From NCBI GenBank assembly GCA_963802965.1, contig CAWDKS010000008.1, positions 71,790 through 135,789 on the forward strand: a stretch of 64,000 nucleotides of DNA, written 5' to 3'. This DNA is from an uncultured Verrucomicrobiae bacterium. GTDB taxonomy: Bacteria > Verrucomicrobiota > Verrucomicrobiia > Limisphaerales > UBA11358. Each line of letters starts with the position of its first letter. The stretch's first letter is position 1. This document shows, in pieces, positions 8,715 through 25,718 of the stretch. The position numbers and the translations under genes are program-made. The notes beneath the pieces were generated by a model. That model did not search any database. It was not told the origin of the DNA and was given only the letters and a program-made list of their open reading frames with translations.

Positions 8715-8719
8715 GACTC

Positions 8720-8757: not shown

Positions 8758-8801
8758 CAGTAATAATCGGCGGGCAAGCAAAGAGGCTTATGGAGTATCA
8801 G

Positions 8802-9035: not shown

Positions 9036-9316
9036 GGCGCGATATTGCACCCGTCAAGAACGGGAGACCAGAGGATTTTGGACATGCCATTTTGCGCGCC
9101 CGGCGTCTGTGGACTATCGGCTACAATCTGAGCGAAGCGAAGACCAGCCTTCGCTCAGAGGCTTCGGCACGGCAGGTGGAAGATCGAGGATGGCGGATGG
9201 CCGCGCAGCAGCACGGCCCTACCACGCACAGAAGAAAATTTGCGGTCATCCATCCTTCGTTTAGAAACTATGGAGGACAGGTCGGCGTCATCTGCGGGGG
9301 AATGGCGGTCGAGGCT

Positions 9317-9469
9317 TCAGGGCTTTTCGGCAACGACTTTTCCGTTACGCCACAAGTAAATCGGCGTGCCGTGGAGGCGGGCGGTCTTGCGCGCCACCAA
9401 AGCGGCGCGGCGCAACGCGCGTCCGGCGCCGGTCAGAGAACTTTTGTATTTAACGCTTCTCGTCTTCAT
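9317..9469 (-). CDS. hypothetical small protein
   Basis: MKTRSVKYKSSLTGAGRALRRAALVARKTARLHGTPIYLWRNGKVVAEKP; internal ATG of ORF 9317..9574; no family recognised. Confidence 0.35.
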   Translation of the reverse strand: MKTRSVKYKSSLTGAGRALRRAALVARKTARLHGTPIYLWRNGKVVAEKP

Positions 9470-9592
9470 CTTTGGACTGCAATAGTCGCGGACTGTCCCC
9501 GGATGTGATTCTGCCCCCGGTGACCGGAGTTTCAAGGCGGAAACATCGAACATCGAACGCTCAACATCCAACATCCAATGAAGGCGGCCGAC

Positions 9593-11494
9593 TCAAACCG
9601 TTCCCGCGGGCTTCGCAACGCGGTAGCTGCGCCACAGTTTGACCGGCAGCAGGCCGAGGAGGATGAGGATGACCTGGCTGCCGATGAAGAGGCTCAACCA
9701 TTGGAATGCCGCGTCGGTGAATCCGTAGCTGTGCAGGCCGATGCCGAGCATGTTCACGCCGAACCAGGAGAAGCTGGTGACAATGTTGCCGAACACGGCC
9801 AGGTTCATCAGGCCGCGCTCGCGCACGAGGCCGCCCCAGCGCGCGTGCAGGATGGTCGCGTTCCACAACACGATGAGCAGCGCGCCGTTTTCCTTCGGGT
9901 CCCAGCCCCAGAACCGGCCCCACGACTGGTCGGCCCAGATGCCGCCAAGCACCGTGCCGACAAAGCTGAACAGCGTCGCGAAACAAACAATGCCATAAAC
10001 CATCCGCGCCAGTGATTTGGCGGTTTCCGCCGAAAGCGTGGTGGTGAACACGCCGCGCAGGATGTAAATGATGGCCAGAAACCCCGCCACAAAGGTCGAG
10101 GCGTAGCCGAGCGTGACGGTCACGACGTGGGTGGCCAGCCAGAAATTGGTGTCGAGCACGGCGCGCATCATTTCCATGGTGTCGCCGCCGAGCGCCAGGT
10201 TGTGCGCGATGATCAGTGTGACGAAACCGACAAACGCCGCGACGACGCAGCCGATGCCGTCGCGGTAAATTTTCTCGAGCACCATTCCAAGGATGACCGC
10301 CGCCCAGCCGATGAAAATGGCCGAGGAATAAAGGTTGGTCACCGGCGGCCGGCCTTCGAGATACATCCGGAACACGAGGCCGAACGTGTGAATGAGCCAC
10401 GCGAGAAAGATGAGATAAAACGCCGAACGCCGGAGCCAGTCCGAGGCATTGAATGCCGGCGCTTTGCGGGTGGCGGTGGCGCCACCGCCACCGAACCACG
10501 ACAGGAATGCGAGCACCAGGGCGAGCACGTAGATGACCATGGCCTTGTAGAACGGCTCCATCGTGCTGAAGAAACATTCCTCGTTCGCCTTGCGCACCTG
10601 CGGCGCGAAACGCTCGGCCAGCCACGCGTGGTATTGACCCACCAGGCGGTTGAAATCGTCCGGCAGCCCGGAACGATAGGCGGTCACCATTTCGGCATAA
10701 AATGTTGTCGCCGGGTTGAATTCGCCGGTGCGCGCGGTCTGCATGAGGTTGGTGCCGATGTTCTGCCAGTCGTCGCGCGGCAGGGCGGGGTCCATGGGCG
10801 GAATGGTCAGCGGCAGGGCGAAGCTGGCGACGGTGTTGTAATTGCCCATGAAACCCAGCAGGGTGTTGAAGGCGTCCTGGTCGAATTTTTTGCCGGCGTC
10901 ACGGGCGTCCACGGCGGCAATGCCCGGCGCGATGCTCTTCTGGTAGGCATCCAGTTCCGCCGCAAAATCGTCCGAAGCCGGCGGTTTGAGGCTGACTTCG
11001 AGCCGCTGATACAGGTCCATGGCCTCGTAGAGCTTCATCAACTGCGACTCGAAGACGGTGCGTTTGGAAGGATCAACCGGCCCGATGCGGCTGACCTGTT
11101 TTTCAATCTCGTCCATCTGCGGACGGATCTGGTTGAAGGAATAATATTTCTGGTTGTCGGGCAGCTTGAGCAGCTCGGTGACCTCGTTGTTGTCAATGCG
11201 GAAGACTTTCCGGTCGTCGGACGCCTCGGGTTTCATCATCGCTTCGAGCAGCCAGTCCATGGCGGACATCTCCCTGCTTTTGCCATTTTCCTCGGTGAGG
11301 ACGGTTTGTCTGGCGCGGATTTGGAGCAGGGAATTGCGGGCGACGGAATCGAACGGCTGGAAGCGGCCGTTCATGAGGACGGGCAGTTTGCCAAAAGCGC
11401 GGGTGTTGAAGCCGGTTTCCGGCGGCTGACGCAGGCCGGACAGCGCCCAGCCCGCCATCACCACAACCAGAATGAGGGGAATCCACTTTTTCAT
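9593..11494 (-). CDS. ccsA: cytochrome c biogenesis protein CcsA/ResC (System II) with long N-terminal periplasmic extension
   Basis: Trp-rich heme-handling motif WADQSWGRFWGWDPKENGALLIVLW; multiple TM segments; start MKKWIPLILVVV. Confidence 0.88.
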   Translation of the reverse strand: MKKWIPLILVVVMAGWALSGLRQPPETGFNTRAFGKLPVLMNGRFQPFDSVARNSLLQIRARQTVLTEENGKSREMSAMDWLLEAMMKPEASDDRKVFRIDNNEVTELLKLPDNQKYYSFNQIRPQMDEIEKQVSRIGPVDPSKRTVFESQLMKLYEAMDLYQRLEVSLKPPASDDFAAELDAYQKSIAPGIAAVDARDAGKKFDQDAFNTLLGFMGNYNTVASFALPLTIPPMDPALPRDDWQNIGTNLMQTARTGEFNPATTFYAEMVTAYRSGLPDDFNRLVGQYHAWLAERFAPQVRKANEECFFSTMEPFYKAMVIYVLALVLAFLSWFGGGGATATRKAPAFNASDWLRRSAFYLIFLAWLIHTFGLVFRMYLEGRPPVTNLYSSAIFIGWAAVILGMVLEKIYRDGIGCVVAAFVGFVTLIIAHNLALGGDTMEMMRAVLDTNFWLATHVVTVTLGYASTFVAGFLAIIYILRGVFTTTLSAETAKSLARMVYGIVCFATLFSFVGTVLGGIWADQSWGRFWGWDPKENGALLIVLWNATILHARWGGLVRERGLMNLAVFGNIVTSFSWFGVNMLGIGLHSYGFTDAAFQWLSLFIGSQVILILLGLLPVKLWRSYRVAKPAGTV

Positions 11495-11506
11495 AATTTC
11501 GTTCGG

Positions 11507-11583
11507 TCTGTAGCAGTCCCGCCGAGCGGGATCAGTCCGCTCCATTCTGGTGAAGTGTGAGCCGACTCACGTCGGCTGCTACG
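11507..11583. repeat. family-A palindromic element (GTAGCAG..CTGCTAC termini)
   Basis: tgtagcagtcccgccgagcggg...gagccgactcacgtcggctgctac; intergenic ccsA-resB. Confidence 0.7.
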
Positions 11584-11633: not shown

Positions 11634-12776
11634 TCATCGAAGCCTCCGTTTCAAGAAGGGGAACAGGTGACTGAGAAACTGGATGAGCAGGCCCAACGCC
11701 ACCAGCACGCACGCAAAGTAGGGCGTCAGCCAGCTCGGATTATGCACCACCTGCAGCACGCTGCCGTGGTCGTCGGGGTCGAAGCTCGCCTGATAAAATG
11801 TTTCACCGGCGTAGCGCAACGGGTTGTTCATGAAAATCCGCACCTCGCGGTCCTCGCCGTTTTCCAGGTTTTGCAGCCGGACCCGGCTGGAGAAATTCTT
11901 GGGGATGTCGGTGCCCGGATATTTGTCATGCCGGAACTCGATGAGGTGGAGGCTGAACGGCAGGTAATAACGTTCCTGGCGCAACAACAATTGATAGGAA
12001 CGGCCGTTGTAGGTGAACGATTGCGGTTGGTCCAGCCACGCGGACACGAGGAACGTGCCCAGCGAACCCTGCGGAGTGACGATCTCAACGATGGCCGACG
12101 GCATGTCGAGCCGGTTCATCTCGGTTTCGCGCGGTTCTTCGCGCCACCAGATGCCGGCGCCGAGGCCGGCGGTGGTTTTGACCGGCTCATAACCCGGCTG
12201 GGATTGCTGCACAAGCGATGAATTGGCGTAAAAGGTCTTCGCGCGCACGGTGAACGGCATCTCCGGGTCGCTCACTTCACCCCGGCGCACCAGCACTGAA
12301 CAGGGGATGGCGACGACCTTGTCCGAGTCCGGGTCGGTGGTGTCCATGACCGCCAGTTCATCGGCGCGCTCGGCCTCGGAGTAATTTTTTGTTTCGCCGA
12401 TGCGCAGGTGCAGGGCGCTTTCCCGAGACAGGAAATCCGTGAGCATCTGACCGAGCAGCAACAGCACGACGCCGAGGTGGATCAGCATGATGCCGATTTT
12501 TCTTTTACCGGGCTGATAATAGCGGAAGTGCGCGACGAACAGGTTGATGAGCAGGATGGTCCCGATGAAGTAACCGCCGGGAAAGATGGGGATGTGGAAG
12601 CTGGAACCGGCCGGCGTCCAATAGACAAAAAAGCTGCGGAAAAATTCGTTCTGGGCCTTGAAAAGGCCGAGATGCACCTGGGCGATGGTGCCCCAGAACA
12701 CAATCACGCAACCGAACACCAGGCACGTGACGGTGAGCTTGAGCGAGGAAAAAAGTCGGTACAGGTTTGTGAGCAT
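11634..12776 (-). CDS. resB: cytochrome c biogenesis protein ResB/CcsB (System II)
   Basis: N-terminal LFSSLKLTVTCLVFGCVIVFWGTIAQ TM pattern, large periplasmic domain, C-terminal TM; directly upstream of ccsA. Confidence 0.8.
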   Translation of the reverse strand: MLTNLYRLFSSLKLTVTCLVFGCVIVFWGTIAQVHLGLFKAQNEFFRSFFVYWTPAGSSFHIPIFPGGYFIGTILLINLFVAHFRYYQPGKRKIGIMLIHLGVVLLLLGQMLTDFLSRESALHLRIGETKNYSEAERADELAVMDTTDPDSDKVVAIPCSVLVRRGEVSDPEMPFTVRAKTFYANSSLVQQSQPGYEPVKTTAGLGAGIWWREEPRETEMNRLDMPSAIVEIVTPQGSLGTFLVSAWLDQPQSFTYNGRSYQLLLRQERYYLPFSLHLIEFRHDKYPGTDIPKNFSSRVRLQNLENGEDREVRIFMNNPLRYAGETFYQASFDPDDHGSVLQVVHNPSWLTPYFACVLVALGLLIQFLSHLFPFLKRRLR

Positions 12777-12965: not shown

Positions 12966-14171
12966 TCAGTATTTCACGCCTTGGACGAATTGAGTGAACG
13001 CGGCCTTCTGGCTTTCGACCACCTTCGCGTCGCCCATCAGCTTGTAAAACCAGGTCTGGCTGGATTGCGGGACCACGACGCCAACGAGCCGGGTCGGCTG
13101 GCCGGTCCGGACATCCGTGCCGCTTAGATCCACGAGCGATGCCGTGCCGCCCGCCACGTCAACTGCCGTCACCAGTTTGTTCACGTCGTTGTCGGACAAC
13201 GGGGCCAGGCCAAGCTGGCCGCGCCAGCGGTTGACGTTGCTGGTCAAACCGCCGCCTTCGCCGGCGGAACTGCTGACGTTGACGGCCGCCGTCGCGCCGC
13301 CTTCACCGGTGAGCATGAATTTGGCGACCAGAAATTGTCCGCCGGAAACCTCCTGCCAGCCGGTCGGCGCCTGCCAGTTCGGCTTGCCTTCGTTGGAAAC
13401 CGGGGCGGTGGCCGGAGACGCCCCCACGCCCATGTCACTGGCCGACAGGTTTGACGGCGGCAAGGGCGTCGGCTCCGGCGCGGCGGCGAAATTCAACGAT
13501 TTGAGGAAGGCGACAAAAGCCGGCTTTTGCTGTTCAACCAACGCGGCGTCACCGGTCATTTTGAAAAACCATGCCATGTCGTCACGATGCTGGATCACAC
13601 CCAGAATGCGTTGCGCGTCGCCGGCGATGTCGTAGAGCTGCGCCGGCTGGCCGGCGGCTTCGACATCTTCCGCGGATTTTTTCAATTCATCCGGCGACAC
13701 GGGTGACAATCCAACCTGGCCGCGCCAGCGGTTGACGTTGGCGTCGTCATTCCCGGCCAGGCCGGGCAGGGGAATGACACTGATGTCGGCCGATTTGCCG
13801 TCCGCGCCGGTCACCTTGAATGACGCCACGCGCATTTGACTGGGCGGGACCTCGGTCCAGCCGTCCGGTGTTTTCCAAGTCAACTGCGGCAGGGCGACTG
13901 CGGATGCCGCGGGCAACGCGGCCGCAGGTGCGGACGAGATGTCCGGATGTCCCGGCGGCAACGACGGGTTGGGCGAATCGGTGGGCAAAGCGGGCGCGGC
14001 TTGTTGTTGTGGCTGGTCCTGGTCCTTGGCCACGCGATAGACCTTCACTTCGTCGCGATGGCAGCCGGCCACGAGCAACAGCAACGGCGTCAAAACCGCC
14101 GGCAACCAGACACGTTTGGGAAAGCGGCGACGGGGGACGGACCCGCATTTTTCGATTGGATGACTTTTCAC
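12966..14171 (-). CDS. lipoprotein with two tandem ~150-aa homologous domains, unknown function
   Basis: Lipobox LLLVAGC; repeated W..P.GW.EV...F...G..G....V....G....NVNRWRGQ.GL.P blocks (NVNRWRGQVGLSP / NVNRWRGQLGLAP). Confidence 0.7.
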   Translation of the reverse strand: MKSHPIEKCGSVPRRRFPKRVWLPAVLTPLLLLVAGCHRDEVKVYRVAKDQDQPQQQAAPALPTDSPNPSLPPGHPDISSAPAAALPAASAVALPQLTWKTPDGWTEVPPSQMRVASFKVTGADGKSADISVIPLPGLAGNDDANVNRWRGQVGLSPVSPDELKKSAEDVEAAGQPAQLYDIAGDAQRILGVIQHRDDMAWFFKMTGDAALVEQQKPAFVAFLKSLNFAAAPEPTPLPPSNLSASDMGVGASPATAPVSNEGKPNWQAPTGWQEVSGGQFLVAKFMLTGEGGATAAVNVSSSAGEGGGLTSNVNRWRGQLGLAPLSDNDVNKLVTAVDVAGGTASLVDLSGTDVRTGQPTRLVGVVVPQSSQTWFYKLMGDAKVVESQKAAFTQFVQGVKY

Positions 14172-14250
14172 GGTAAGAAATTAGGTTAAGGATTGGTGAG
14201 AATTCAAGTTTATTCTGGCCGGACGGGGGCGCATCTTGACACTGCCCCGA

Positions 14251-14362
14251 CTCCCTCTCCCCGCCAGAGCGGGGAGGGGGCTGGGGCGAGGGGATTTGAT
14301 CTGGAAAAAACAACGAGCCTCCTCACCCCGGCCCTCTCCTCGTTTGGCGAGGAGAGGGAGAA
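14251..14362. repeat. family-C ~110-bp element
   Basis: ctccctctccccgccagagcggggaggggg...gagcctcctcaccccggccctctcct...ggagagggag. Confidence 0.65.
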
Positions 14363-14453
14363 AAGCCGGGTAGTGCGCGCATGCGCCGCGGGTCGCCGCG
14401 GGCGGAAGGGTTTGGGTCAAGGTTGCGAGATTCAAACAATGCCCTCATGCCGG

Positions 14454-16580
14454 TTAAAAACGGTATTGCAGGCTGGAGAAGATGACGTGGGCGTCGTAAT
14501 TGAAGTTGCCGCCGGACGCCGCATCTTCATAATGGGTGAAGGCGTATTTCAGGTTGAGGCGCAGATTTTTGGTGATGCGGCGGGAGAGCGTCGCGGTGAT
14601 GCTGTGCTCCTCGGTGTCGGTCCCGAGCGGCAGGCCGCCAACGATGTTGTTCTGGCCGTCGGCGGCGCGATAATAAAAATAACCCAGGTTCAAATCGGTC
14701 CTGTCATCCAGCACAAAATCGGAGTTGAAGTTGAGCGTCCAGTAGTTGTTTTGCGAGTTGAGGATGGCCTGGGTGTAATCGGAGGCCGGCGTTTTCGTCT
14801 CGCTGATGACGTAATTGAATCCCACCTGCAAACCGAGCCAGCTCAGTGGCGTCCAGCTCGCGTTCTGGCCGATGATGTGGGTGTGCATCCGCGAGGAATC
14901 CACCTCGCTCAAGCCGGAGGCGGGGTCGGGCCGCGTGCTGATGGTGGAGAGCTGATATTCGTAGCGGCTGACGAGCGTGACCTTGTTCCACGGGCGCAGC
15001 GTGAGGCGGAGGTTGCCATCCCACGTTTGAAATCCCTGATAGACGAGGAAGCCGGGATAAACTTCCCCGCCGCTGAAATTGTTTGTCGTGCTGTCCTCGG
15101 TGAAATTGTAATTGTAGCGGTTGATTTTGTAATAGCCGCCGAAGTCAATGCTCGTCCGGGCGGCCGGATACCAGCGGGCGCTGGCGGAATATTTTTGGAA
15201 GAGGCGCGAGTCATCGGTCGCGAATTCCACCGGCGCGGGTCCGAAACCGGAAACCTGGGTCAGCCCTCCGTGTTCGTTCAAATTCCCCCGGCCTTCGGTC
15301 CATTGGCCGCCGAGATTAAAAACCCAATTGGTTACACCGATGTAACGCAAGTCCAGGCGTTCGCTGACATCGAGCGAATCACGTCCGCTGTTGTCGGTGA
15401 ACGGTTCTTGCTCGCCGGTGTCCAGCGTGCCCATGCCGGCGGAATTGGCGTTCCAATCCTCCTTTTGTATCCGAAGCGAGGGTGTGACGGTCAAATTTTT
15501 GGTGAGCAGCGACATCAAGTTGACATTGGCGACATACTGGTGTTCGTGGGCGCTGCCATTGAGATTGTAGTAGCCGTAGTTGAGGGCCGGATAAGCCGGC
15601 GAATAAACCACGTCAAAATCATCCCCGTAAATCCGGCTGCCGGTGAAAGTGTCGTCCAGGTTGGCAAACATGAAACCGGCGGACAGGAACAGGTTTTTCT
15701 TGAGCCAGCTTTCGGCAAAGGCGTGGGTGCTCAACATGTCATAGGCGGTGCCCTGCTGGTCAGTGGCTTTTTCTTGGGCGGGTTCTCCTGGAAAGAAGGT
15801 GAGCAGGTGGGCGTCGTTCATTGTCCCCGTTTCATAGCTCACTCCCGCCCCGTAATTCACCGTTTTGTAATGATGGGTCAGATCCAATTGGAATGTGTCG
15901 GACTTTTCGTCAATGTCGAAAATGCCCGGATATGCACGATAGAGGCTTCCACTGTTGGGATCATGGACCGGTCCCCAGAGAGTCGAACTTTTCTCGCCGT
16001 CGCGGTAGCTGTGGCTGTATTTGAAGGTGATTTGCGGCAAATCCGGTTTGGCCAGCCCCATTTCGAAGGTAATCCGGCCGCGGTCCAGCGCCAGCGCATC
16101 GCCCGGCAGCGAATACGATTGCTGCGCGTCGGGCAGGTATCCTCCGGCGCCGGAATCCCAGGTGCGGAAATTCTCGAAATTGAAACGGACAAAACCAAGG
16201 TCATCGCGAACCAGGCCAAGCCCGACGCTGTAATCGTGATCATCAAAAATGGAATGTCCGTCCAGCGTGAAGGTGGTCTTTTTGGCCACCTGATCTTCGT
16301 AGTGCAGGTCGGTGATGCCGCCGAAGACGCCGGTATTGAGGCGCTCGCGTTGTTCCGCCCCGTTCGCGTAACCGTGGGTCAACAATGCGCCGGTGGAAAG
16401 CTCGATCCAGTTGCTGTAGGTGTTGGTGCCGCCCTCATACGATTGTGCCGGCGTGACCGCATCGCCCGCCTGCGCCTGCGCGCCCAGGACGAGGAGCGAC
16501 GCCCCGACGACATACCGGCCGAGACCGGTCTTTCGCGGCGCGGCGCGAAGCGGTTTGGATTTCCGGGATTTTGTTTTCAT
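14454..16580 (-). CDS. large outer-membrane beta-barrel protein (candidate MtrB/PioB-like porin)
   Basis: Signal peptide ..LLVLGAQAQA; alternating beta-strand-like pattern; C-terminal aromatic ..SSLQYRF; immediately downstream of a periplasmic multiheme cytochrome. Confidence 0.75.
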   Translation of the reverse strand: MKTKSRKSKPLRAAPRKTGLGRYVVGASLLVLGAQAQAGDAVTPAQSYEGGTNTYSNWIELSTGALLTHGYANGAEQRERLNTGVFGGITDLHYEDQVAKKTTFTLDGHSIFDDHDYSVGLGLVRDDLGFVRFNFENFRTWDSGAGGYLPDAQQSYSLPGDALALDRGRITFEMGLAKPDLPQITFKYSHSYRDGEKSSTLWGPVHDPNSGSLYRAYPGIFDIDEKSDTFQLDLTHHYKTVNYGAGVSYETGTMNDAHLLTFFPGEPAQEKATDQQGTAYDMLSTHAFAESWLKKNLFLSAGFMFANLDDTFTGSRIYGDDFDVVYSPAYPALNYGYYNLNGSAHEHQYVANVNLMSLLTKNLTVTPSLRIQKEDWNANSAGMGTLDTGEQEPFTDNSGRDSLDVSERLDLRYIGVTNWVFNLGGQWTEGRGNLNEHGGLTQVSGFGPAPVEFATDDSRLFQKYSASARWYPAARTSIDFGGYYKINRYNYNFTEDSTTNNFSGGEVYPGFLVYQGFQTWDGNLRLTLRPWNKVTLVSRYEYQLSTISTRPDPASGLSEVDSSRMHTHIIGQNASWTPLSWLGLQVGFNYVISETKTPASDYTQAILNSQNNYWTLNFNSDFVLDDRTDLNLGYFYYRAADGQNNIVGGLPLGTDTEEHSITATLSRRITKNLRLNLKYAFTHYEDAASGGNFNYDAHVIFSSLQYRF

Positions 16581-16598
16581 CGGGTTCCGTGGCGTTGG

Positions 16599-17459
16599 CT
16601 AAAATCTCAGGGACGGACTCACGCGCGAACCGTGGACTGCCTCATGACAACCGGCGCTCCAGCAGGCGCCCTGGCTCAATTTCGAGGTGTGGTCCACCCC
16701 GCCGATTAGAATTTGGCCTGGCTGGCTTTGCTGGAAATGGCATTTCAAACACAGGTTCGCGTTGCGTTCGGTGAGCAGTTTGGGGTTGACGCTGCCGTGC
16801 GGGGAATGGCAGGTGGTGCAACCTTCGCGCAAGGCTTCGTGCTCAAAGACAAAGGGGCCTTGCTGGGAAGGATGACATTGGACGCAGTTTTCCTCCTGCG
16901 AAAGCAACTGGGTGCTGCCCCCGGCAAAAGCAATGCCCTTGTGCGGGGGATGGCATAGGATGCAGGACATCCGTCCTTCAGGCACGGGATGGTGGCTGGG
17001 AAGATTGAACTGGCCGCGCACGTCCAGATGACATTGATAGCAAGTGTTCTCGACCGCGCGCGCTGGTTCGAGCGGGAAACGCCCGCTCAATGCTTCCGGT
17101 TGCGGCCGGCCGGCGGTGAAACTGTAGGGGGGTTTGACGTCGCCGCCCGAGTCCTCGTGCAAACTGCAGGGGCCGTGGCAGGATTCACAGCCGGCGTTGA
17201 GCCCGTTTTTGCCCAGGGCGATGAGCCGGGCGTGGTCGGCGGTCTTGAAGCTGCGGCAGATATCTTCGTGGCATTGTTCACAATCCGCGGAACCGACATA
17301 TTTCGCGCCCGGCACGTCCGGGAGCACCACCGCCTGATGGCTGAGCGTGCTGCAGGAAATCGCCGCCAGCAGCAAAACGGCCGCGCCGGCGGCTAGCGCC
17401 AGATTGCGACCACGGCGGCCACGCGGCAACAGCTGTTTAATGAATAAAAACTGTTTCAT
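16599..17459 (-). CDS. periplasmic multiheme cytochrome c (7 CxxCH plus one CxxxxCH), MtrA/DmsE/NrfB-like
   Basis: CEQCH, CESCH, CYQCH, CILCH, CVQCH, CTTCH, CLKCH, CWSAGCH; signal peptide. Confidence 0.88.
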   Translation of the reverse strand: MKQFLFIKQLLPRGRRGRNLALAAGAAVLLLAAISCSTLSHQAVVLPDVPGAKYVGSADCEQCHEDICRSFKTADHARLIALGKNGLNAGCESCHGPCSLHEDSGGDVKPPYSFTAGRPQPEALSGRFPLEPARAVENTCYQCHLDVRGQFNLPSHHPVPEGRMSCILCHPPHKGIAFAGGSTQLLSQEENCVQCHPSQQGPFVFEHEALREGCTTCHSPHGSVNPKLLTERNANLCLKCHFQQSQPGQILIGGVDHTSKLSQGACWSAGCHEAVHGSRVSPSLRF

Positions 17460-17525
17460 GCGGATTGTTTTTTGTCGTTCATTTCTCGCCTATTGGCAAA
17501 ATGCGCTGTAACCGTTGCCTGCTGT

Positions 17526-19256
17526 TCATGGGTATAATTCCTGGTAGATCATGTTTTCAGCCGCAGTCAGCAGGTTGAGGGCAAAAATCCAGTTGTGGGC
17601 GCCGAGGCTGCCGTCATTGACCACGAGGTATAAATTGAACCGGGCCTTCTTGATGTTGTCCGGGATCAAGTTTTGGCCGGCGGCGTCCGGCCCGCTGAAA
17701 TTTACCTGGTCCATCTGGATCCAACCGGTCGCGTACCCCAACGAGTTGGTTTGCAGGATCAATCCCCCGGGCGTCGTGTATTCCCAGGCCACCACACCGT
17801 TGGTCTGCAATGCCGCCCCCTTGGCCGCGGCCCAGTCATTCAACAGGACCATCACCGTGGTCACCTCATTGGAAATGCCCGGTCCCGAGGATCCGGGGTC
17901 ATCGAGATGACAGTTCAAACACACGTCGTGGGAACCGATCTCGAACGTGTGGCTGTGGGCGATGACCGGCGGGGCGTCGGGTTGCATGTGGCAGGACACA
18001 CATTGATTGGTCAGGTAAAACGTGCCGGAAAACGAGTTTTGAGCGGAACCGGGGAGACCTGCATGCGTGCCGGGATTGAAGGTGGCCGGGCTGTCCGTCA
18101 CGCCGTTCCACAATTGACCGACTGAGCCGAGCAGGAAATTGTATTGCAGTGAATGGTGCGGCGCGCGGGAAGTGTCCGTCCACGCGGCCCCGCGTTCGTT
18201 GTGGCACTGGGCGCAGAGATTGATGTTGGTGTTCGCGTTGTATTTGTTCGTGAACACGTCCGAGGTGGCGAGGGAAAAATAGTTGGTCGAAAAGACGGGG
18301 TTGCGAAGCTGTGCCGGGTTGGCATTGGTCTGGTGCGGATCGTGGCAAACAGCGCAGGTAATGGCGACGTCCAGGTCATTCGTGAGCGCGAGGGGATTCT
18401 GTCCGTCGATCAGCGCATCCCGGACGGAGCCGGAATGGCAGCGGCCGCAACTGCTGATGTTGTTGGCGGACGAACTCATGGCCGACAGCGCGTCCGGCAC
18501 CACGGCGGCATGATCGCTGGACGACCATTCCTCAAACGTCGGCGCATTGGTGTAGCTGGTGTGGCTTGCGCTATGGCAGCCGCCGCAGACGGTGGCAGCG
18601 AGTTCCACGCGCGGGACCGCCGTGGGGTCATCGGTGGCGGCCGCGTGATTGGCCGCCGGACCGTGGCAGTTTTCGCACTGCACGCCGGCCAGATTGGTGG
18701 TGTAGGAAAACACTCCGTTCTGGTTGGTGAAGCTGAACCCGGTCGGCAAACCATAGCCGACGGTGTGGCATGGCAGACACGAACTATTGGTCTGGCCACC
18801 GGCGGCCATGAATGCCGCGCTGCTGAAGGCGCTGGCGTGGGGCGTGTTCGTCACATACTGGCAGATGCTCAAATGACACGTCAGGCAGACCTTCAAGCCG
18901 GCATATTTTGGCGCCGGGCCGGAGACGCGGAAGAAGGCATTGCTGTAAAGCGTCGTGATGACGGCGTTGCGGACGAGATTGGTGGCCTTGCCCAGCGCCA
19001 CCCACGGGGCGGTCAGGCTGTTGCTTTTCTGATAGAGCTGATAATAACCGGAGGGCCCGTCCCAGGTGACCTGCACGCCGTTGGTCAACCGTTCAATACC
19101 GCCCATGACCGGCAATCCTGGCATCCCTCCGGGCTGGGTGGCGCCCAGGTGTTGGACCGGTTGCGCCATCAGGGACGATGCAGTGAAAAGAATGCCCGCC
19201 GTCAGAATCAACCATGGCATCTGATTGGACGACGAAGCCCTGGCGCGGTTCGTCAT
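17526..19256 (-). CDS. nonaheme cytochrome c with N-terminal non-heme beta-domain
   Basis: CLTCH, CLPCH, CENCH, CGGCH, CGRCH, CAVCH, CAQCH, CVSCH, CLNCH; start MTNRARASS.. then TM/signal. Confidence 0.85.
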   Translation of the reverse strand: MTNRARASSSNQMPWLILTAGILFTASSLMAQPVQHLGATQPGGMPGLPVMGGIERLTNGVQVTWDGPSGYYQLYQKSNSLTAPWVALGKATNLVRNAVITTLYSNAFFRVSGPAPKYAGLKVCLTCHLSICQYVTNTPHASAFSSAAFMAAGGQTNSSCLPCHTVGYGLPTGFSFTNQNGVFSYTTNLAGVQCENCHGPAANHAAATDDPTAVPRVELAATVCGGCHSASHTSYTNAPTFEEWSSSDHAAVVPDALSAMSSSANNISSCGRCHSGSVRDALIDGQNPLALTNDLDVAITCAVCHDPHQTNANPAQLRNPVFSTNYFSLATSDVFTNKYNANTNINLCAQCHNERGAAWTDTSRAPHHSLQYNFLLGSVGQLWNGVTDSPATFNPGTHAGLPGSAQNSFSGTFYLTNQCVSCHMQPDAPPVIAHSHTFEIGSHDVCLNCHLDDPGSSGPGISNEVTTVMVLLNDWAAAKGAALQTNGVVAWEYTTPGGLILQTNSLGYATGWIQMDQVNFSGPDAAGQNLIPDNIKKARFNLYLVVNDGSLGAHNWIFALNLLTAAENMIYQELYP

Positions 19257-19559
19257 ATCGCGGTTGGGCCGTCTCCCATTCTTTGCCGGGCAGCGCGGCG
19301 CGCGTCGAACCATTGGATGCATGTTGGCAACGCCAGAACAAAGAACAACAAATGGAACTTTGTTCAACATATTCTTCGCTCGAAGGATACTCCCGCCCGG
19401 CGCGCGAACTAACCCTCAATTGCTTCATACTCGTCAAATATTGCCCAATCTGGCCGGTAGTGTCACCATCGGACACCGCCCGTCTGTCCGCCCCGGAATT
19501 TTCTAAAATTGACAGGCTGGAGAAATGCCCGAAGAATGTGGCAAAAAGGACAGCGCTGA

Positions 19560-20483
19560 ATGAAACCATCCTCCACCAACGTATCCGGAGACCCCGGACC
19601 AGGCGTCCGGGCGTCCGGGCGCAGCACAGCAGTTCTGCTGCTGGTCGTTTTCCTGTTGGGAGTCATCCTGGCCGGCGTCTGGTTCAAATACGGCAAGCCC
19701 AAAGCGGGTTCCTTTTGGCCGGGACGGAGCGGCCCCGAACTTTCCGACAACACTTGGGAGCAGTTGCGTCATTTGAATTCGCCCGTGGAGATCCGGTTCT
19801 ATTCGGTGCTCCCGCCGGGCAGCGCCCCGGAACCGCTTCAGGATTTTTCCGGGCGGGTGGAGCATTTGCTGTCCAAATTTCAAGACGCCAATCAGAGCCA
19901 GATTCATGTGACCCGGAACATCTCGACATCGGGAGCCAACGCGGACGCTGCCGCCGGTGACGGCATCCGTCCTTTCAACCTGGACAAGGGCGACGCTTGT
20001 TTTTTGGGTATTACCGTCGTCAGCGGGGAGCGAAAGGAATCGCTGGCGCAGATCCAGCCCGAATGGGAACCGGCACTGCCGTTTGACCTGGCCCGCGCCA
20101 TTCTCCAGGTGGCCGCCGCGCCGTCATCGTCCGCCGTCAAGGCCAGCCCACCGGTCTCCCCCGAAACCACCAATGAAATCCTGCGCCTGATTCCCAATGT
20201 CAATGGCACGTCGTTGGAAGACGGAATCGGAATTTTACGCCAGGCCGCCGTGGACAAATTCAGCGAAGCCGGCGCCGAGATGCAGAAGCAGATTCAGGTC
20301 GCGCAACAACAAGTCGCCGATGCGCAAAACGGCCGGTCCGAGGCGGAACAACAGGTCGCGATGAAACACCTCCAGCAGGTCCAGTTGGACCAGGCGGAAA
20401 AAGTCAAGGCCATCGCCACGCAGTTGCAGGCCCAGATTTCCGCATTCGAGCAGATGAAGGCTGCGCCTCCCGCCACGAAATAA
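19560..20483 (+). CDS. membrane-anchored protein, GldG/ABC_transp_aux-like N-domain plus C-terminal coiled coil
   Basis: TM AVLLLVVFLLGVILAGVWF; L..L..PV.I.FY pattern; Q/A/E-rich heptad tail; family call tentative. Confidence 0.5.
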   Translation: MKPSSTNVSGDPGPGVRASGRSTAVLLLVVFLLGVILAGVWFKYGKPKAGSFWPGRSGPELSDNTWEQLRHLNSPVEIRFYSVLPPGSAPEPLQDFSGRVEHLLSKFQDANQSQIHVTRNISTSGANADAAAGDGIRPFNLDKGDACFLGITVVSGERKESLAQIQPEWEPALPFDLARAILQVAAAPSSSAVKASPPVSPETTNEILRLIPNVNGTSLEDGIGILRQAAVDKFSEAGAEMQKQIQVAQQQVADAQNGRSEAEQQVAMKHLQQVQLDQAEKVKAIATQLQAQISAFEQMKAAPPATK

Positions 20484-20548
20484 TTTCCTGCCTTCCGGCA
20501 CGGAACTTCGCTCGGATCGTTGAGAATCTCCCGCCTTTATCGGCAAAC

Positions 20549-20578
20549 AAAAAACCCCTTCCCGTTGCCGGGAAGGGG
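20549..20578 (-). terminator. rho-independent terminator
   Basis: Perfect 10-bp stem ccccttcccg/cgggaagggg, 4-nt loop, followed on the minus strand by TTTTTT; ~20 nt after stop at 20602. Confidence 0.7.
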
Positions 20579-20601
20579 TGCGTTCAAATGATTTTACCCG
20601 A

Positions 20602-21372
20602 TTACGGCGTATGCACCACGCGGAAGAACATTTGCGCATTGTTCCGCGTCGGGGTTACGTAACTGATGGAACCGCCCGTGCCGGGGATGTTGGTGCTGAT
20701 GTTCTGCCAACTGCCGGTGAGGGCGGAGATGCCCTGAATCTGGTAGCTGGTGCCGATCTGCGTGTTGAAGGCGATTTCCGCCGCCGTGTAGATGGCTATG
20801 GTGTTGGCGGCGCCGTTGACGATGTTGTTGCCGTTGAAAAAGACCACGCCGCTGCCCGCCGCCACCGGCGTCGAACGCGGGTCAAGACCCAGGGCATACA
20901 TCATCCAGTTCGGAAAGCCAGCGGCGTTGTTGATGGCGTCGGGACCGGCAGCCGGATTCGTGACAAAATTTGAGCCGAAGTAATGGATCTCCCACGCATC
21001 CGGCAGGCCGCCGGTGGTGGAAATACCCGTCAGATCGGCGATGGAAGCCTTGAGCAGGCCGATCGCGAACTTCGCGTTATGAACACCCAAGCTGGCGTCA
21101 TAGTAGACAAAGTCCCAGTTGTAATAAGCGTTCAAGAACCTGGTTGGCATGTTGGTATAATTCGCCATATTTCTGTCGGAAGCCTTGACCAAGCCATCCG
21201 CGACGTAGTTGGAGGGATTTGCCTGATAGACTCTTGGGGGCATGAGCATGGACAATTGGTTGAGCAGGATCTGGACCTGGGTCTGGATGCCCTGGCTGTA
21301 GCCGTAACCGACATAATCGGGGGCCGGTATATCAAAATTGGTGACGGCTGCCGTGGCACTGGGTACAGACAT
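20602..21372 (-). CDS. non-heme domain protein, probably the frameshifted C-terminal part of cytochrome 21332..23041
   Basis: Homologous to the C-terminus of the 17526..19256 cytochrome (FLNAYYNWDFVYYDASLGVHNAKFAIGLLKAS vs ARFNLYLVVNDGSLGAHNWIFALNLLTAA); overlaps the upstream ORF by 41 nt in another frame. Confidence 0.6.
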   Translation of the reverse strand: MSVPSATAAVTNFDIPAPDYVGYGYSQGIQTQVQILLNQLSMLMPPRVYQANPSNYVADGLVKASDRNMANYTNMPTRFLNAYYNWDFVYYDASLGVHNAKFAIGLLKASIADLTGISTTGGLPDAWEIHYFGSNFVTNPAAGPDAINNAAGFPNWMMYALGLDPRSTPVAAGSGVVFFNGNNIVNGAANTIAIYTAAEIAFNTQIGTSYQIQGISALTGSWQNISTNIPGTGGSISYVTPTRNNAQMFFRVVHTP

Positions 21373-23041
21373 AGGTCACCGGAATCTTGACGCCCAGGTT
21401 GTTGGTGTAACTCATCTTGGTGGTATGGCCGCCGGCCAGGCTGAAAGCCGGAGTGTTCGTGGTCGGCTGCATGTGGCAACCGACGCAGGTGTCGGGGACC
21501 ACATTGGCGTGCGGAGCGCTGGGAATCACCTGCCCGTAGGTCACGGCGTTCACGCCCTCAAGCATGTCAGCCTGCGGACTGTCATGCGTGCCAAAGCTGA
21601 CGCCGCCAGCCCAGTTGGGCTGATTCAAAGGATATTTCGCCAACATGTTGGTGGCGGAACCGTTGCGGTTGTTATGGCATTCCATGCAGAAACCACCGCT
21701 GCCGGCATTCGTGACCACTGTGCCATCGGAGAGCGTAACATTATAGCCCATGCGTAATTCGTGCGGGTTGGAAGCATCATGCGGGTTGTGGCAAGCCTGA
21801 CAGGTGATCGCTTCGTAGGTCGTGTTGGGGGCGGTGGTTAAAATATTGGTGGAATACGCATTCGCAGAAATAACATTGGTGGGATACAAATTCTGCGCGC
21901 TCATACCGCCAGCCGTGGCCCAACCAACGAAGCCAGGCGCCGTATGGCAACGGACGCAGGCGGCACCAGTCTGTCTGGCGGAAGAAGCATGGACTGAATT
22001 GTTCCATTCCGCGCTTTGGTATTCGGCGGTCAGGCTGTCATGGCATTGCGAGCAGACACCCGCGCTGTAGCTGACAGAGATAAAATTGGTATTCCCTACT
22101 ATGCCATTCGCAACCGGATGCTGACTGCCGGGGCCGTGACAATTCTCGCATTGGATGTTGGCCAGGTTCTGCAATGCCGCCGGCATTGCGGCCCAGTTGC
22201 TGGGGTTGTTGGTCAGCACGGCCGGGAAAGTCCAGCCGTACAACGTCGCGAGGTCGTCAAAGCCGCCGTTGACGGCGAACGAGTTGGTATCATAGCCGAG
22301 AGTATGGCACTGAATGCAATTCTTGCTGTAGTGGCTGTTGACCAGGCCATCAATGGCCCGGGTGAAGAACGAGGCATGGGGCGTATTCGTGTAAGTGGGG
22401 TAAACGCTGGGCGCATTCAGGACGCCGCCACTATGGCAGGCCTCGCAAGTTTGCAAGCCATAATAAGTGGATGCCGTGATGGTGTTGGTGATGTTCACCA
22501 TGGTCGGAGAGATATTCGTCCCGTTGACGGTGCCTGTCGTCATTATCGTGGCCACAACGGTGTATTGTCCGACGACATCCGGGCGGAAAAAGGTACGGCC
22601 AGTCGGGCCCGCCAGTTGCAGGTACGGTGTGGGGACAGCATTATTGGCTCCACCCGTGACCCGATCCCCCGTCTTGAAGAGCGGCACGTTGGTGCCCAAC
22701 GGACTGGCGAGCAACACCGCCTTCGAACCCAACGGGATGTTGCTGGTGGGCATCGCCCAGTTAACGCCAAGGATGTTCGAAGATGGAATGGAAGCGCTCA
22801 CCATGGCGTCCAGATAAACCGGTTCGCCCAGGGCGACGGTGCTGATGCCGGCGGAGAACTGGGCATTGCTCAGCGAATACCCATAAGTTGATGAGATTTC
22901 GCCTGGTGTGAGGGGACGTTGGGTAACCTGGCCATTCAACGCGATTGACGCCGCGTTAACGGTGGCCACGGATCCGACAAACGCCAATGTCGCCGCCGCA
23001 AGGCCGGCAGACATCTTCGATAGGGAATGGTGTGTTTTCAT
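21332..23041 (-). CDS. nonaheme cytochrome c
   Basis: CEACH, CIQCH, CENCH, CSQCH, CVRCH, CQACH, CMECH, CVGCH, CTQCH; signal peptide after MKTHHSLSKMSAGLAAATLAF. Confidence 0.85.
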   Translation of the reverse strand: MKTHHSLSKMSAGLAAATLAFVGSVATVNAASIALNGQVTQRPLTPGEISSTYGYSLSNAQFSAGISTVALGEPVYLDAMVSASIPSSNILGVNWAMPTSNIPLGSKAVLLASPLGTNVPLFKTGDRVTGGANNAVPTPYLQLAGPTGRTFFRPDVVGQYTVVATIMTTGTVNGTNISPTMVNITNTITASTYYGLQTCEACHSGGVLNAPSVYPTYTNTPHASFFTRAIDGLVNSHYSKNCIQCHTLGYDTNSFAVNGGFDDLATLYGWTFPAVLTNNPSNWAAMPAALQNLANIQCENCHGPGSQHPVANGIVGNTNFISVSYSAGVCSQCHDSLTAEYQSAEWNNSVHASSARQTGAACVRCHTAPGFVGWATAGGMSAQNLYPTNVISANAYSTNILTTAPNTTYEAITCQACHNPHDASNPHELRMGYNVTLSDGTVVTNAGSGGFCMECHNNRNGSATNMLAKYPLNQPNWAGGVSFGTHDSPQADMLEGVNAVTYGQVIPSAPHANVVPDTCVGCHMQPTTNTPAFSLAGGHTTKMSYTNNLGVKIPVTYVCTQCHGSRHQF

Positions 23042-23113: not shown

Positions 23114-24190
23114 TCAAATCGCGGCCTCGCACAGGATCCAGCCCGGCACCAATTCCACCGTCGAGGTCGGCCGGTTGACGGGTGGCGGATTCAATTTCAG
23201 CATCAACGCCCCCGCGCGCCGCGCGACGATGTCGTTGCACTTGGAAAGTTCCTGTTCCCGCATCCGGGAATTCTCGCGGACAATCGCTTCCAGGTGGTCA
23301 ATGTTGTAGAGATAAACGTTTTCCAGTTCCTCCACGTCCGGGGCAATGTCCCGCGGCACGGCGATGTCCACCAAGACCAGCGGCCGGTTCGACCGGGCCG
23401 CCAGAACGCCGGCGATCTCGTGCTTGTGAAGAACGGTCGTGGGGCTGCCCGTGGAACTCACCACAATGTCCGCCGCGGCCAGCGCCTGCAGGCGCTCGTC
23501 AAATGGCAGGGCGCGTCCGCCGAGTTCCGCGGCCAGCGCCTGGGCGCGTTCGAGGGAGCGGTTGGCCACCAGCACCGAGCGGGCGCCGCGTTTGGCCAGA
23601 TGACGGACACAGGCCTCGCCCATCTTGCCCGCCCCCAGGATCATCACCGTCTTGTCCGACAAATCGCCGGCAAAAATTTTTTCCGCCAGTTCCACCGCCA
23701 CGCTGCCCACGGAGGTGGTGCCGCGTCCGATGCCCGTGTGCGTGCGGACTTCCTTGGCCACCTGCAGCGCGGTCTGAAACCACCGGTTCAACGTCCGGCC
23801 AGTCAACCCGGCCTGCTGCGCCGCCTGATAGGCGTTCTTGACCTGACCGGTGATTTCCGTTTCACCGATCACCATGGAATCCAGGCCGCTGGCGACCGAG
23901 AACAAATGTTCCACCGCGGCCGCGCCTTCCTTGACGTAAACATAAGGCGTCACATCCAAGCCCGGACAAAGCTGTTGGAAAATGCGAAACACCTTGCCCT
24001 GGACCCACGAGGAGGTGGCGCCATAGACCTCGACGCGATTGCAGGTGGAAAGCAGCACGACTTCATCCAGACCGGCGCCGAGCTTGAGCCGGCAACCGTG
24101 GCACGGCAAACGTGAAGGTCGTACCGCCAGCCGTTCGCGCACCTCCACCGGCGCGGTTTTGTAACTCAAACCTGCGACAAACACCTTCAT
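23114..24190 (-). CDS. hemA: glutamyl-tRNA reductase
   Basis: MKVFVAGLSYKTAPVEVRERLAV.., LSTCNRVE, NAD-binding MILGAGKMGE. Confidence 0.9.
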   Translation of the reverse strand: MKVFVAGLSYKTAPVEVRERLAVRPSRLPCHGCRLKLGAGLDEVVLLSTCNRVEVYGATSSWVQGKVFRIFQQLCPGLDVTPYVYVKEGAAAVEHLFSVASGLDSMVIGETEITGQVKNAYQAAQQAGLTGRTLNRWFQTALQVAKEVRTHTGIGRGTTSVGSVAVELAEKIFAGDLSDKTVMILGAGKMGEACVRHLAKRGARSVLVANRSLERAQALAAELGGRALPFDERLQALAAADIVVSSTGSPTTVLHKHEIAGVLAARSNRPLVLVDIAVPRDIAPDVEELENVYLYNIDHLEAIVRENSRMREQELSKCNDIVARRAGALMLKLNPPPVNRPTSTVELVPGWILCEAAI

Positions 24191-24465
24191 GCCCCCGCCC
24201 TCCCCGCGGTTTCGGCCCCGCTGCAGACCGGCGCGATGGAAATGAACCATCGGAGGCGCAGCTCGCGCCTCCCGCCGATGCCGCCAGACCGGTCAGGGCA
24301 CCATTGAAGCCCGCATTCTTGATTCACGGGGTAACTCTAGGCCGCAGGACAGAAGTTGCTGCCCATCCCTTGGCAACCGCTTTGCATATATTGTCATTAG
24401 CATAACATATTCATATTACGTCCACGTTTACAAATAAGCTTATATTAATTTATGATTTAGCCGGC

Positions 24466-25200
24466 TTGAGCCGTGGAAAAAGTGTTTGTCCCCTGCGGTG
24501 GGATTGCCCACGCTGTTGCCAGATCCGTGTGAACGACAATCCCACACCGTCCCTGGCGCCCGGCTGCCGGCCCGCAATCAAGCGGGTCTTGCTCGAAGCC
24601 GTGTTCGTGGCGGTCATCGGCGCGCTGTTCGCGCTTGCCGCCAACCAGATTTCACCGCGGGGCCTGGCGCTCACGCGGAACTATTTCCCGGAAGGGACCG
24701 GCAGGCTCGTGTCGGCCGCCCCGCCCGCCGCCCTGCCGAACAATGCCAACGGCACCAATTCCATGCCGGTTGACCCCACTCAATTGCTCGCCGCGGAATT
24801 GAAGGAAAAAGGTCTGCAACTGGTTGATGGCAGCGAGGCGGCGCGGCTCTTTCACGACCCGCGCTGCCGGCGGAACATCGTGGTGTTTATTGATGCCCGG
24901 AACGAAGAACGCTACCAGGCAGGGCACATTCCCGGCGCTTACGAATTCGACCCCTACCTTCCGGAAGAATATTTTACCGCCGTGTTACCGGTCTGCAAGG
25001 CGGCCGAACAAATCGTTGTTTACTGCCACGGCGGCGATTGCGATGACAGCGAGACCGCCGCCCTTTTGCTGCGGAACGTCGGGATTGCGAACCAGAAGCT
25101 CTTTGTCTATGCCGGCGGAATCACGGAATGGACCACCAACGGCCTGCCGGTCGAGATGGGCGGGCGGAACAGCGGGACGCTGCGAAACACCAGCAAATGA
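24466..25200 (+). CDS. membrane-anchored rhodanese-domain protein
   Basis: IDARNEERYQAGHIPGAYEF .. VVYCHGGDCDDSE; N-terminal TM; true start uncertain. Confidence 0.7.
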   Translation: MSRGKSVCPLRWDCPRCCQIRVNDNPTPSLAPGCRPAIKRVLLEAVFVAVIGALFALAANQISPRGLALTRNYFPEGTGRLVSAAPPAALPNNANGTNSMPVDPTQLLAAELKEKGLQLVDGSEAARLFHDPRCRRNIVVFIDARNEERYQAGHIPGAYEFDPYLPEEYFTAVLPVCKAAEQIVVYCHGGDCDDSETAALLLRNVGIANQKLFVYAGGITEWTTNGLPVEMGGRNSGTLRNTSK

Positions 25201-25718
25201 ATATCGGCCAACCTAACCGGAATCGCATCGCTTTGAACCTGTCCACCGTGCTGGTGCGCTGGTTGTTGGGCGCGGTTTTTCTTTACACCGGCTTGAGCAA
25301 GGCGCTGCATCCCGTGGATTTTCTGAAGCTGGTGCGGCAATACGACCTCGTGCAGAGCTTCTGGCTTTTGAATTCGATTGCGGCGGCCCTGCCCTGGTTT
25401 GAAATCTTTTGCGGATTGCTGCTGCTGGTCGGGGTCGCGGTGCGCGGGACGGCTTTGACGCTGATGTTGATGCTGGTGCCGTTCACGGCGCTGGTGTTCC
25501 ATCGCGCCCTGGCCATTCAGTCGGCGCTGGCCATCCCGTTCTGCATGGTGAAGTTCGATTGCGGTTGCGACACCGGTGAAGTCTTCATCTGCCACAAGCT
25601 GCTGGAAAATTTTCTCCTGATCCTGTTGTCGGGCTGGCTGCTGGCGGGACGTGGCCGGCAATTCAGCCTGCGCTTCGATTTGATAAACCCTTTGCCAGGT
25701 CGTAGTTCGCAGTGCTGA
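25197..25718 (+). CDS. MauE/DoxX-family membrane protein
   Basis: VLVRWLLGAVFLYTGLSKALHPVDFLKLVRQYDLV; ATGA overlap with rhodanese stop. Confidence 0.7.
   Translation: MNIGQPNRNRIALNLSTVLVRWLLGAVFLYTGLSKALHPVDFLKLVRQYDLVQSFWLLNSIAAALPWFEIFCGLLLLVGVAVRGTALTLMLMLVPFTALVFHRALAIQSALAIPFCMVKFDCGCDTGEVFICHKLLENFLLILLSGWLLAGRGRQFSLRFDLINPLPGRSSQC

Follow-up and report, generated by a model that had tools for sequence, protein, structure and literature searches.

A predicted porin-cytochrome conduit with an octaheme MtrA homologue, encoded beside heme-supply and System II maturation genes in a Limisphaerales genome

The closest described relatives of the system considered here are porin-cytochrome gene clusters of the phylum Verrucomicrobiota. 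He et al. (2017, mSphere, PMC5615132) reported from Verrucomicrobia a porin of at least 20 strands with an adjoining periplasmic cytochrome carrying eight heme sites and, sometimes, an extracellular multiheme cytochrome; the clusters came from metagenome-assembled genomes (MAGs) of a humic bog, had homologues in Opitutus terrae PB90-1, and were proposed to serve electron transfer to humic substances. A preprint by Fiorito et al. (2026, bioRxiv 10.64898/2026.05.27.727921) describes in the Limisphaerales a cluster termed "EET4", consisting of a nonaheme OcwA-like cytochrome of 583 amino acids (aa; NF041198), an octaheme MtrA-like cytochrome of 286 aa with seven CXXCH motifs and one CX4CH motif (TIGR03508), and an MtrB-like porin; according to its descriptions the cluster is present in SPRUCE and Stordalen MAGs and transcribed through deep anoxic peat, and a sister cluster, "EET3", belongs to Palsa-1439. 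Isolates of Limisphaera have furthermore been reported to respire ferrihydrite, and porin-associated multiheme cytochromes were noted in the same study (PMC13608581, 2026). Here we analyze a stretch of 64,000 nucleotides (hereafter the window; contig CAWDKS010000008.1, positions 71,790 to 135,789) from the genome of an uncultured Verrucomicrobiae bacterium of the order Limisphaerales (assembly GCA_963802965.1; 3.3 Mb in 12 contigs), in which genes for three multiheme cytochromes and a large outer-membrane barrel lie next to genes for heme supply and heme attachment (Table 1). An initial annotation of the window had proposed a porin-cytochrome conduit beside its own heme genes, and this proposal is upheld by the MtrA homology of one of the cytochromes, the predicted 26-strand plug-less barrel and the invariable adjacency of the two genes. 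The accompanying supposition that such conduits had not been characterised in this kind of organism has to be withdrawn, as both He et al. (2017) and the EET4 account of Fiorito et al. (2026) describe the architecture. Because the three-gene core was thus described in 2017 and again in the 2026 preprint, our account of it is confirmation rather than discovery; this core is already known at the genomic level and is biochemically uncharacterised.

The core consists, in the direction of transcription, of a secreted nonaheme cytochrome (cytochrome B), an octaheme cytochrome and the barrel. The octaheme cytochrome, previously annotated as a periplasmic protein with about eight hemes, does possess eight heme-binding motifs in its 286 residues. 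Searches with its sequence recovered the MtrA subunit of the MtrCAB structure from Shewanella baltica (chain A of PDB entry 6R2Q, E 6e-22) and the DmsE/MtrA family TIGR03508 (E 1.9e-45; 155.4 bits, under the cut-off of 192.2), with the uncharacterised GSU2203 family as the top NCBIfam match (172 bits, cut-off 325). Judged by these sequence matches, the protein is a true homologue of MtrA. In this respect our result departs from that of He et al. (2017), who termed their system non-homologous to Mtr and Pcc, whereas the octaheme cytochrome of the window is clearly homologous to MtrA and DmsE. The heme complement is strictly conserved, with seven CXXCH motifs and one CX3-4CH motif retained in all 73 full-length orthologues from related loci. 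Furthermore, ahead of the first heme motif, 72 of 74 orthologues, and those of three distant genomes as well, have a run of hydrophobic residues that leads into [AGS]-C, in most cases ..AISC or ..VISC. In light of this conserved lipobox-like motif the octaheme wire is predicted to be a lipoprotein, unlike MtrA.

The barrel gene begins 18 nucleotides after the stop codon of the octaheme cytochrome. An AlphaFold2 model of its product, built with 29 homologues (predicted local distance difference test, pLDDT, 73; predicted template-modelling score, pTM, 0.67), displays 26 strands and no plug, and Foldseek returned MtrB (6r2q_B) as its best PDB match, with an E-value of 3e-13 and template-modelling (TM) scores of 0.47/0.51. 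At the level of primary sequence the barrel has no Pfam match at all, a six-frame search of the genome with PF11854 leaves it untouched, TIGR03016 (PEP-CTERM-associated outer-membrane protein) does not match it at E<=0.01, and the only NCBIfam match is a weak one to NF041027 (E 1.5e-4). Its own family comprises 927 clusters (50% identity, E<=1e-3). Taken together, the model and the profile searches predict a separate sequence family with the architecture of MtrB. Weaker, partial matches to the barrel profile (E 1e-20 to 1e-37) were also seen in open reading frames (ORFs) of 720-870 aa situated a few kb from genes for ImcH-like cytochromes (e.g. G237:C1:3330243-3332435 and G045:C19:434407-436596), which suggests that the phylum contains a second, more divergent barrel subfamily.

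Relatives of the barrel numbered 163 in a scan in which each species was represented by one genome, and we inspected the best 80 of these 163 loci. Most of the 80 come from MAGs titled Verrucomicrobiota, Verrucomicrobiia or Limisphaerales, a minority bearing other, probably mislabelled, titles, and their habitats are peat (SPRUCE, palsa), Danish soils (MFD soil MAGs) and boreal lakes (Umea). Wherever enough flanking sequence was available in these loci, the gene for cytochrome B is followed directly by that for the octaheme cytochrome, and this in turn by the barrel gene; the latter two are also adjacent in distant genomes in which the barrel identity is 29-34%. Across a sample of 401 Verrucomicrobiota genomes the barrel is present in 30, which represent 21 genera. 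The distant single-contig genome G189 contains an ImcH-like gene, the octaheme cytochrome (50% identity) and the barrel (29% identity), adjoined by a divergent lipoprotein-resB-ccsA set.

The arrangement is like that of MtrCAB, MtoAB, PioAB and DmsEF in that the gene for the wire stands immediately before a large barrel gene, and the outer cytochrome is encoded upstream, as is mtrC. The predicted 26-strand, plug-less barrel likewise resembles MtrB, itself a protein of 26 strands. Differences are apparent in each of the three components: 1) the wire has eight hemes where MtrA has ten, scores below the TIGR03508 cut-off, and bears a lipobox whereas MtrA is soluble. 2) The barrel lacks both PF11854 and the N-terminal CXXC of MtrB. 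3) MtrC is a four-domain decaheme lipoprotein (TIGR03507), whereas the large cytochromes here are nonaheme, OcwA/OmhA-like and devoid of a lipobox, the only match between them being at the domain level (PF22113). The locus is also akin to the Geobacter Pcc conduit (OmbB-OmaB-OmcB), by heme count and partners only, in combining a periplasmic cytochrome of eight hemes with a porin, an outer cytochrome, and ImcH-like (seven-heme, NapC/NirT-type) and CbcL-like partners. For OmbB some 20 strands are predicted, and OmcB is a lipoprotein with 12 hemes.

With EET4, as described in the preprint of Fiorito et al. (2026), the window shares the gene order, the 286-aa length of the octaheme cytochrome together with its seven CXXCH motifs, single CX4CH motif and TIGR03508 match, a nonaheme cytochrome (583 aa in EET4 and 576 aa here) and a porin of about 700 aa with 6r2q_B as best match, as well as the bacterial order and the peat habitats. 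The EET4 porin is given there as a protein of 736 aa that matches TIGR03016, whereas the barrel of the window has 708 aa and a weak match to NF041027, like the EET3 porin. In view of this mismatch in porin family, we place the locus with EET4 rather than EET3 only provisionally, on taxonomy and size, an assignment made from the published descriptions of the two clusters and not from their sequences. The lipobox of the octaheme cytochrome, the link to hemA and the adjacent System II genes are features of the window that are absent from those descriptions, and the names ImcH-like and CbcL-like are not used in the main text of the preprint.

Table 1. Features of the conduit locus and of associated electron-transfer genes. 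Positions are those of the window unless a contig (C4, C8) is named.
Feature	Position	Strand	Characteristics
Octaheme cytochrome, 286 aa	16599-17459	-	7 CXXCH + 1 CX4CH (CWSAGCH); lipobox ..LLLAAISC
Outer-membrane barrel, 708 aa	14454-16580	-	Sec signal peptide (..AQAQA/GD); C-terminal ..LQYRF; no Cys or heme motif
Cytochrome B, 576 aa, secreted	17526-19256 (ORF to 19370; probable start 19256)	-	9 CXXCH; N-terminal beta-sandwich, C-terminal helical domain
Cytochrome A, heme part	21332-23041 (ORF to 23101)	-	Signal peptide; N-terminal non-heme region of ~150 aa; 9 CXXCH
Cytochrome A, C-terminal non-heme part	20602-21372	-	Helical domain + beta-sandwich; ends MFFRVVHTP; no heme motif; out of frame
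Frameshift site in cytochrome A	21346-21349	-	Four bases (AGCC, coding strand) vs one codon (A/S/T) in relatives
hemA (glutamyl-tRNA reductase)	23114-24250	-	TIGR01035, 361 bits; co-oriented, 72 nt upstream of cytochrome A
Lipoprotein, 401 aa	12966-14171	-	Lipobox LVAGC; two internal repeats; no other Cys
resB/ccsB	11634-12776	-	PF05140, E 1.3e-15; single copy in genome
ccsA (System II heme lyase/heme channel subunit)	9593-11545	-	Long N-terminal extension; PF01578, E 4e-24; TIGR03144, E 1e-37; single copy
ImcH-like cytochrome, 490 aa	C8:70948-72420; 3' part = window 1-634	+	N-terminal transmembrane helices; NapC/NirT-like domain; 6 CXXCH + 1 CX3CH
4-heme membrane-anchored cytochrome, then 4Fe-4S NrfC-like and NrfD-like genes	C8:66598-69120, ~3-5 kb upstream of window start		No catalytic subunit
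Tandem CbcL-like pair	C4:405258-409320		Cytochrome b membrane domain of FdnI/Ni_hydr_CYTB type; fused c-type part with 11 and 9 heme motifs
Conserved divergent gene	19560-20483	+	N-terminal transmembrane segment; DUF7088 (PF23357, 35.9 bits, above Pfam cut-off); Gln-rich coiled coil
Intrinsic terminator ending the hemA-cytochrome A unit	20554-20579	-	11-bp stem with 8 G-C pairs, then TTTTTTGTTTG

The two large cytochromes of the locus, A and B, are paralogues of about 28-30% identity, each with an ordinary AXA-type signal peptide and nine hemes, all of whose motifs are of the form CXXCH and none of the CXXCK type. Cytochrome B retrieves from PDB the surface cytochromes OmhA (6qvm, E 1.5e-11) and OcwA (6i5b, E 1.4e-8) of Gram-positive metal reducers, keeps nine CXXCH motifs in 62 of 65 orthologues, and is hence best described as a putative surface terminal reductase. 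PF22113 (MtrC/MtrF domain II/IV, cut-off 30) is matched by cytochrome A with 49.7 bits and by cytochrome B with 29.9 bits. Extra non-heme beta-domains ending in ..FFRV had been ascribed to both proteins: the domain of cytochrome A is indeed C-terminal, and that of cytochrome B turns out to be N-terminal, with ..NAFFRVSGP standing before the first heme. Cytochrome A had moreover been presented as a nonaheme cytochrome plus its probable C-terminal domain, each with coordinates of its own. The assignment of the second frame as the C-terminal part is correct, and in 45 of 45 relatives the heme part and the C-terminal part run on in one frame of about 700-830 aa, joined at ..CTQCHG[A/S/T]VTNFD... 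By this comparison of sequences, cytochrome A and the ORF that follows it belong to a single gene, interrupted by a +1 frameshift (one extra base), which may be a true mutation or an assembly error. Selenocysteine recoding, considered for the in-frame stops of cytochrome A in three relatives (L004, L022, L038), was rejected, as two of the stops precede the real start and the third, a TAA, is close to the N-terminus.

The genome encodes eight ORFs with at least three CXXCH motifs, of which three are the conduit cytochromes and another is an ActA-like pentaheme cytochrome of the alternative complex III (ACIII) type; none of the eight is an NrfA-, OTR- or HAO-type enzyme. This removes the main scenario under which the initial annotation would have been overturned, namely that the octaheme cytochrome is an NrfB-type partner of a reductase encoded nearby. 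We accordingly rejected a role in nitrite reduction for the octaheme cytochrome: no such reductase is encoded, and the NrfC/NrfD-like genes upstream of the window come without a catalytic subunit.

Several of the remaining multiheme proteins are plausible sources of electrons for the conduit. One of these is the ImcH-like cytochrome, which matches PF03264 (E 1.8e-10) and NrfH (E 2.5e-13). In the phylum sample, an ImcH-like gene occurs in 24 of the 30 barrel-positive genomes against 11 of the remaining 371 (Fisher p 9e-25, with no correction for phylogeny), and most genomes with both genes have them no more than 10 kb apart. Of the 80 inspected loci, 28 have an ImcH-like, CbcL-like or 4-heme gene at a distance of up to 10 kb from the conduit, and in 25 of these 28 an ImcH-like or a CbcL-like gene is present there. 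The ImcH-like gene abuts ccsA or the conduit in relatives, and in L006 two CbcL genes and ImcH follow directly after ccsA. In the window itself the ImcH-like gene and ccsA are convergent and are parted by a restriction-modification-like island of about 9 kb (635-9592), which includes Vsr (1211-1858) and an m5C methylase (7471-8490). As only about 0.2 kb separates the two genes in L002, we interpret the island as an insertion into an electron-transfer supercluster; genome G048 has the same order, ImcH-like gene, ccsA and octaheme cytochrome, without the island. A CbcL-like pair comparable to that of the source genome adjoins the conduit or sits upstream of hemA in L006, L019, L048, L056 and L076. 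The 4-heme gene, which with its NrfC-like and NrfD-like neighbors possibly forms a third quinol-to-periplasm module, is likewise found near the conduit in L003, L032, L036, L052, L059, L069 and L076.

The heme-related genes flank the conduit on both sides. The linkage of hemA to cytochrome A, upstream of the triad, recurs in more than 30 relatives. A second hemA copy (C3:444466-445514), which is either a pseudogene or a poorly assembled stretch, is split over three frames by two frameshifts, so that the copy beside cytochrome A is the sole intact one in the genome. At the other end of the locus, proteins of the ResB and CcsA families are encoded together, which identifies the pair as a System II cytochrome c maturation apparatus. 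The four assignments that we inherited for these genes are sustained, hemA by TIGR01035, the lipoprotein by its lipobox LVAGC, resB by PF05140 and ccsA by PF01578 and TIGR03144. The 401-aa lipoprotein was considered as a possible conduit component. We discarded this candidate, as synteny ties it to resB and ccsA instead: it stands directly upstream of resB even in loci in which resB is 4-5 kb away from the barrel (L012, L054, L057, L060), and likewise in G189 and G048. Since the lipoprotein tracks resB-ccsA away from the barrel, it belongs with the System II module, in which it may be an accessory factor for cytochrome c maturation that is specific to the lineage. Fiorito et al. (2026) searched for ccm genes only and concluded that "uncharacterized components" may be responsible for maturation; in our analysis the "missing" maturation system for the cytochromes of these bacteria is System II, encoded right beside the conduit.

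On the strength of the genes and their heme motifs, the homology to MtrA, the predicted barrel architecture, the synteny, and the co-occurrence and linkage of the ImcH-like gene, we consider it likely that the locus mediates extracellular electron transfer in the outward direction, through a porin-cytochrome conduit, with Fe(III) or humic matter as the acceptor. In such a scheme menaquinol would be oxidised at the inner membrane by the ImcH-like and/or CbcL-like cytochromes, possibly also by the 4-heme/NrfC/NrfD module, and the electrons would be handed to the lipid-anchored eight-heme MtrA homologue. We infer that the latter is threaded through the 26-strand barrel and that the large cytochromes are exposed on the surface, where one or both of the secreted nonaheme OcwA/OmhA-like proteins would take up the electrons and use them to reduce acceptors that are insoluble or macromolecular, for instance Fe(III) minerals, humic substances or particulate organic matter of peat. 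The hemA gene and the System II genes (lipoprotein, resB and ccsA) would provide the 26 hemes that the three conduit cytochromes carry and see to their attachment.

Several observations weigh against outward transfer through such a conduit. In Pfam and NCBIfam searches the barrel matched neither PF11854 (MtrB_PioB) nor TIGR03509 at E<=0.01, and its profile found no PDB chain at E<=1, the only match at E<=10 being an unrelated colicin-M immunity protein (E 1.1) and not MtrB. In Foldseek the 22-strand TonB-dependent receptors come close to MtrB (E 5e-12 vs 3e-13, with TM scores of about 0.5). The AlphaFold2 model of cytochrome B, based on a 30-sequence alignment, is too poor for use (pLDDT 46.6), being confident solely in the N-terminal beta-sandwich and the C-terminal helices, and in this assembly cytochrome A carries a frameshift. 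As both large cytochromes are devoid of a lipobox and of a demonstrated export route, their surface location is something that we infer. No member of the family has experimental support. Finally, homologues of ImcH and CbcL also accompany the Fe(II)-oxidising Mto systems, in which they are known as ImoA and MtoC (PMC6295460), and so the partners do not fix the direction of flow. This last point also favors the idea that the same conduit runs inward, taking up electrons outside the cell from Fe(II) or from humic matter in its reduced form and delivering them, under micro-oxic conditions, to the quinone pool or to an oxidase, like MtoAB and PioAB. It is established that MtrA-family conduits are reversible in principle and that MtoAB and PioAB are oxidising versions of them, and the ActA-like pentaheme cytochrome of ACIII in the genome would fit such a route. 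However, MtoAB and PioAB are without extracellular multiheme cytochromes, whereas the cluster here includes two of the OcwA/OmhA-like type; the carriers are heterotrophs of anoxic peat and bog hypolimnia, in which the cluster is transcribed at depth; and the Limisphaera isolates reduce Fe(III) (PMC13608581). We thus regard inward flow as unlikely.

The divergence of the barrel bears on the question of whether these genes specify a conduit at all, or rather an electron-transfer or reductase system of the periplasm that acts on a soluble substrate, with the barrel as an unrelated substrate porin that merely shares the operon. Besides the position of the barrel outside the MtrB/PioB sequence family and the Foldseek scores of the TonB-dependent receptors, such a system could draw on the relatives of OcwA, which according to the supplement of Fiorito et al. 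(2026) resemble enzymes of the NrfA/OTR type in structure and act as reductases on oxyanions. The initial annotation had itself named an unrelated porin family as the outcome that would speak against a conduit. In substance this outcome did not arise: the barrel does constitute a sequence family of its own without PF11854, but it has a predicted MtrB architecture, with 26 strands and MtrB as top match. Its predicted lack of a plug and its 26 rather than 22 strands set it apart from the TonB-dependent receptors, it always stands immediately downstream of the MtrA homologue, down to a barrel identity of 29%, all nine motifs of each large cytochrome are CXXCH with no CXXCK-type catalytic motif among them, and no catalytic molybdo- or siroheme partner is encoded nearby. 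A soluble-substrate system is hence improbable in our view. The frameshift in cytochrome A raises the further prospect of a module that is decaying in this genome and is only partly functional, with cytochrome A as a pseudogene and the ImcH-like gene cut off by a mobile restriction-modification island. The frame is intact in all 45 relatives compared, the second hemA is broken in three frames, and the 9-kb island occupies what is a 0.2-kb gap between the ImcH-like gene and ccsA in L002. Against decay, long ORFs without interruption are present for the triad, resB, ccsA, hemA and the ImcH-like gene, the truncated cytochrome A still has a signal peptide and the full set of nine heme motifs, and the frameshift may be an assembly error; we accordingly give this possibility very little credence.

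Returning to outward transfer, a more far-reaching proposal, which we put forward tentatively and would not yet rely upon, is that the genome encodes a complete, hard-wired pathway from quinol to the cell surface that has not been described as such. It would comprise an ImcH-like cytochrome, tandem CbcL-like cytochromes and the 4-heme/NrfC/NrfD set as entry points, a lipid-anchored octaheme descendant of MtrA, a barrel diverged from MtrB beyond sequence recognition, OcwA-type reductases, a dedicated hemA whose other copy is decaying, and a System II apparatus with a new lipoprotein component. Under this proposal the 401-aa lipoprotein may be that new System II component, and the lipidation of the wire may constitute a mechanistic difference from MtrA. 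If the conduits work as outlined, abundant Verrucomicrobiota of peat and soil could respire humic matter or Fe(III), and carbon would be diverted from methanogenesis in peatlands, a point made earlier by He et al. (2017/2019) and in the preprint of Fiorito et al. (2026). What the present analysis adds to these accounts is the MtrA homology of the octaheme cytochrome and its conserved predicted lipobox, the phylum-wide linkage with ImcH-like and CbcL-like genes, System II beside the conduit, and the sole intact hemA. The single-contig genome G189, with its core of ImcH-like gene, octaheme cytochrome and barrel, could serve genetics.

As regards the layout of the locus, every ORF that had been named in the initial annotation was recovered on the minus strand with the same coordinates. 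The claim that all genes lie on that strand does not stand, as a plus-strand gene is situated between the two large cytochromes. This divergent gene divides the locus into two minus-strand units, one consisting of hemA and cytochrome A and the other extending from cytochrome B through ccsA. Its position and opposite orientation between the large cytochromes are kept in most of the 80 loci, and promoter-like sites facing both directions are found at 19437-19537. The strong terminator that had been placed after cytochrome A is borne out by an 11-bp stem with a T-run. Beyond the upstream end of the locus, and divergent from hemA, are genes for a rhodanese-domain protein (24466-25200) and a membrane protein of the MauE/DoxX family (25128-25718).

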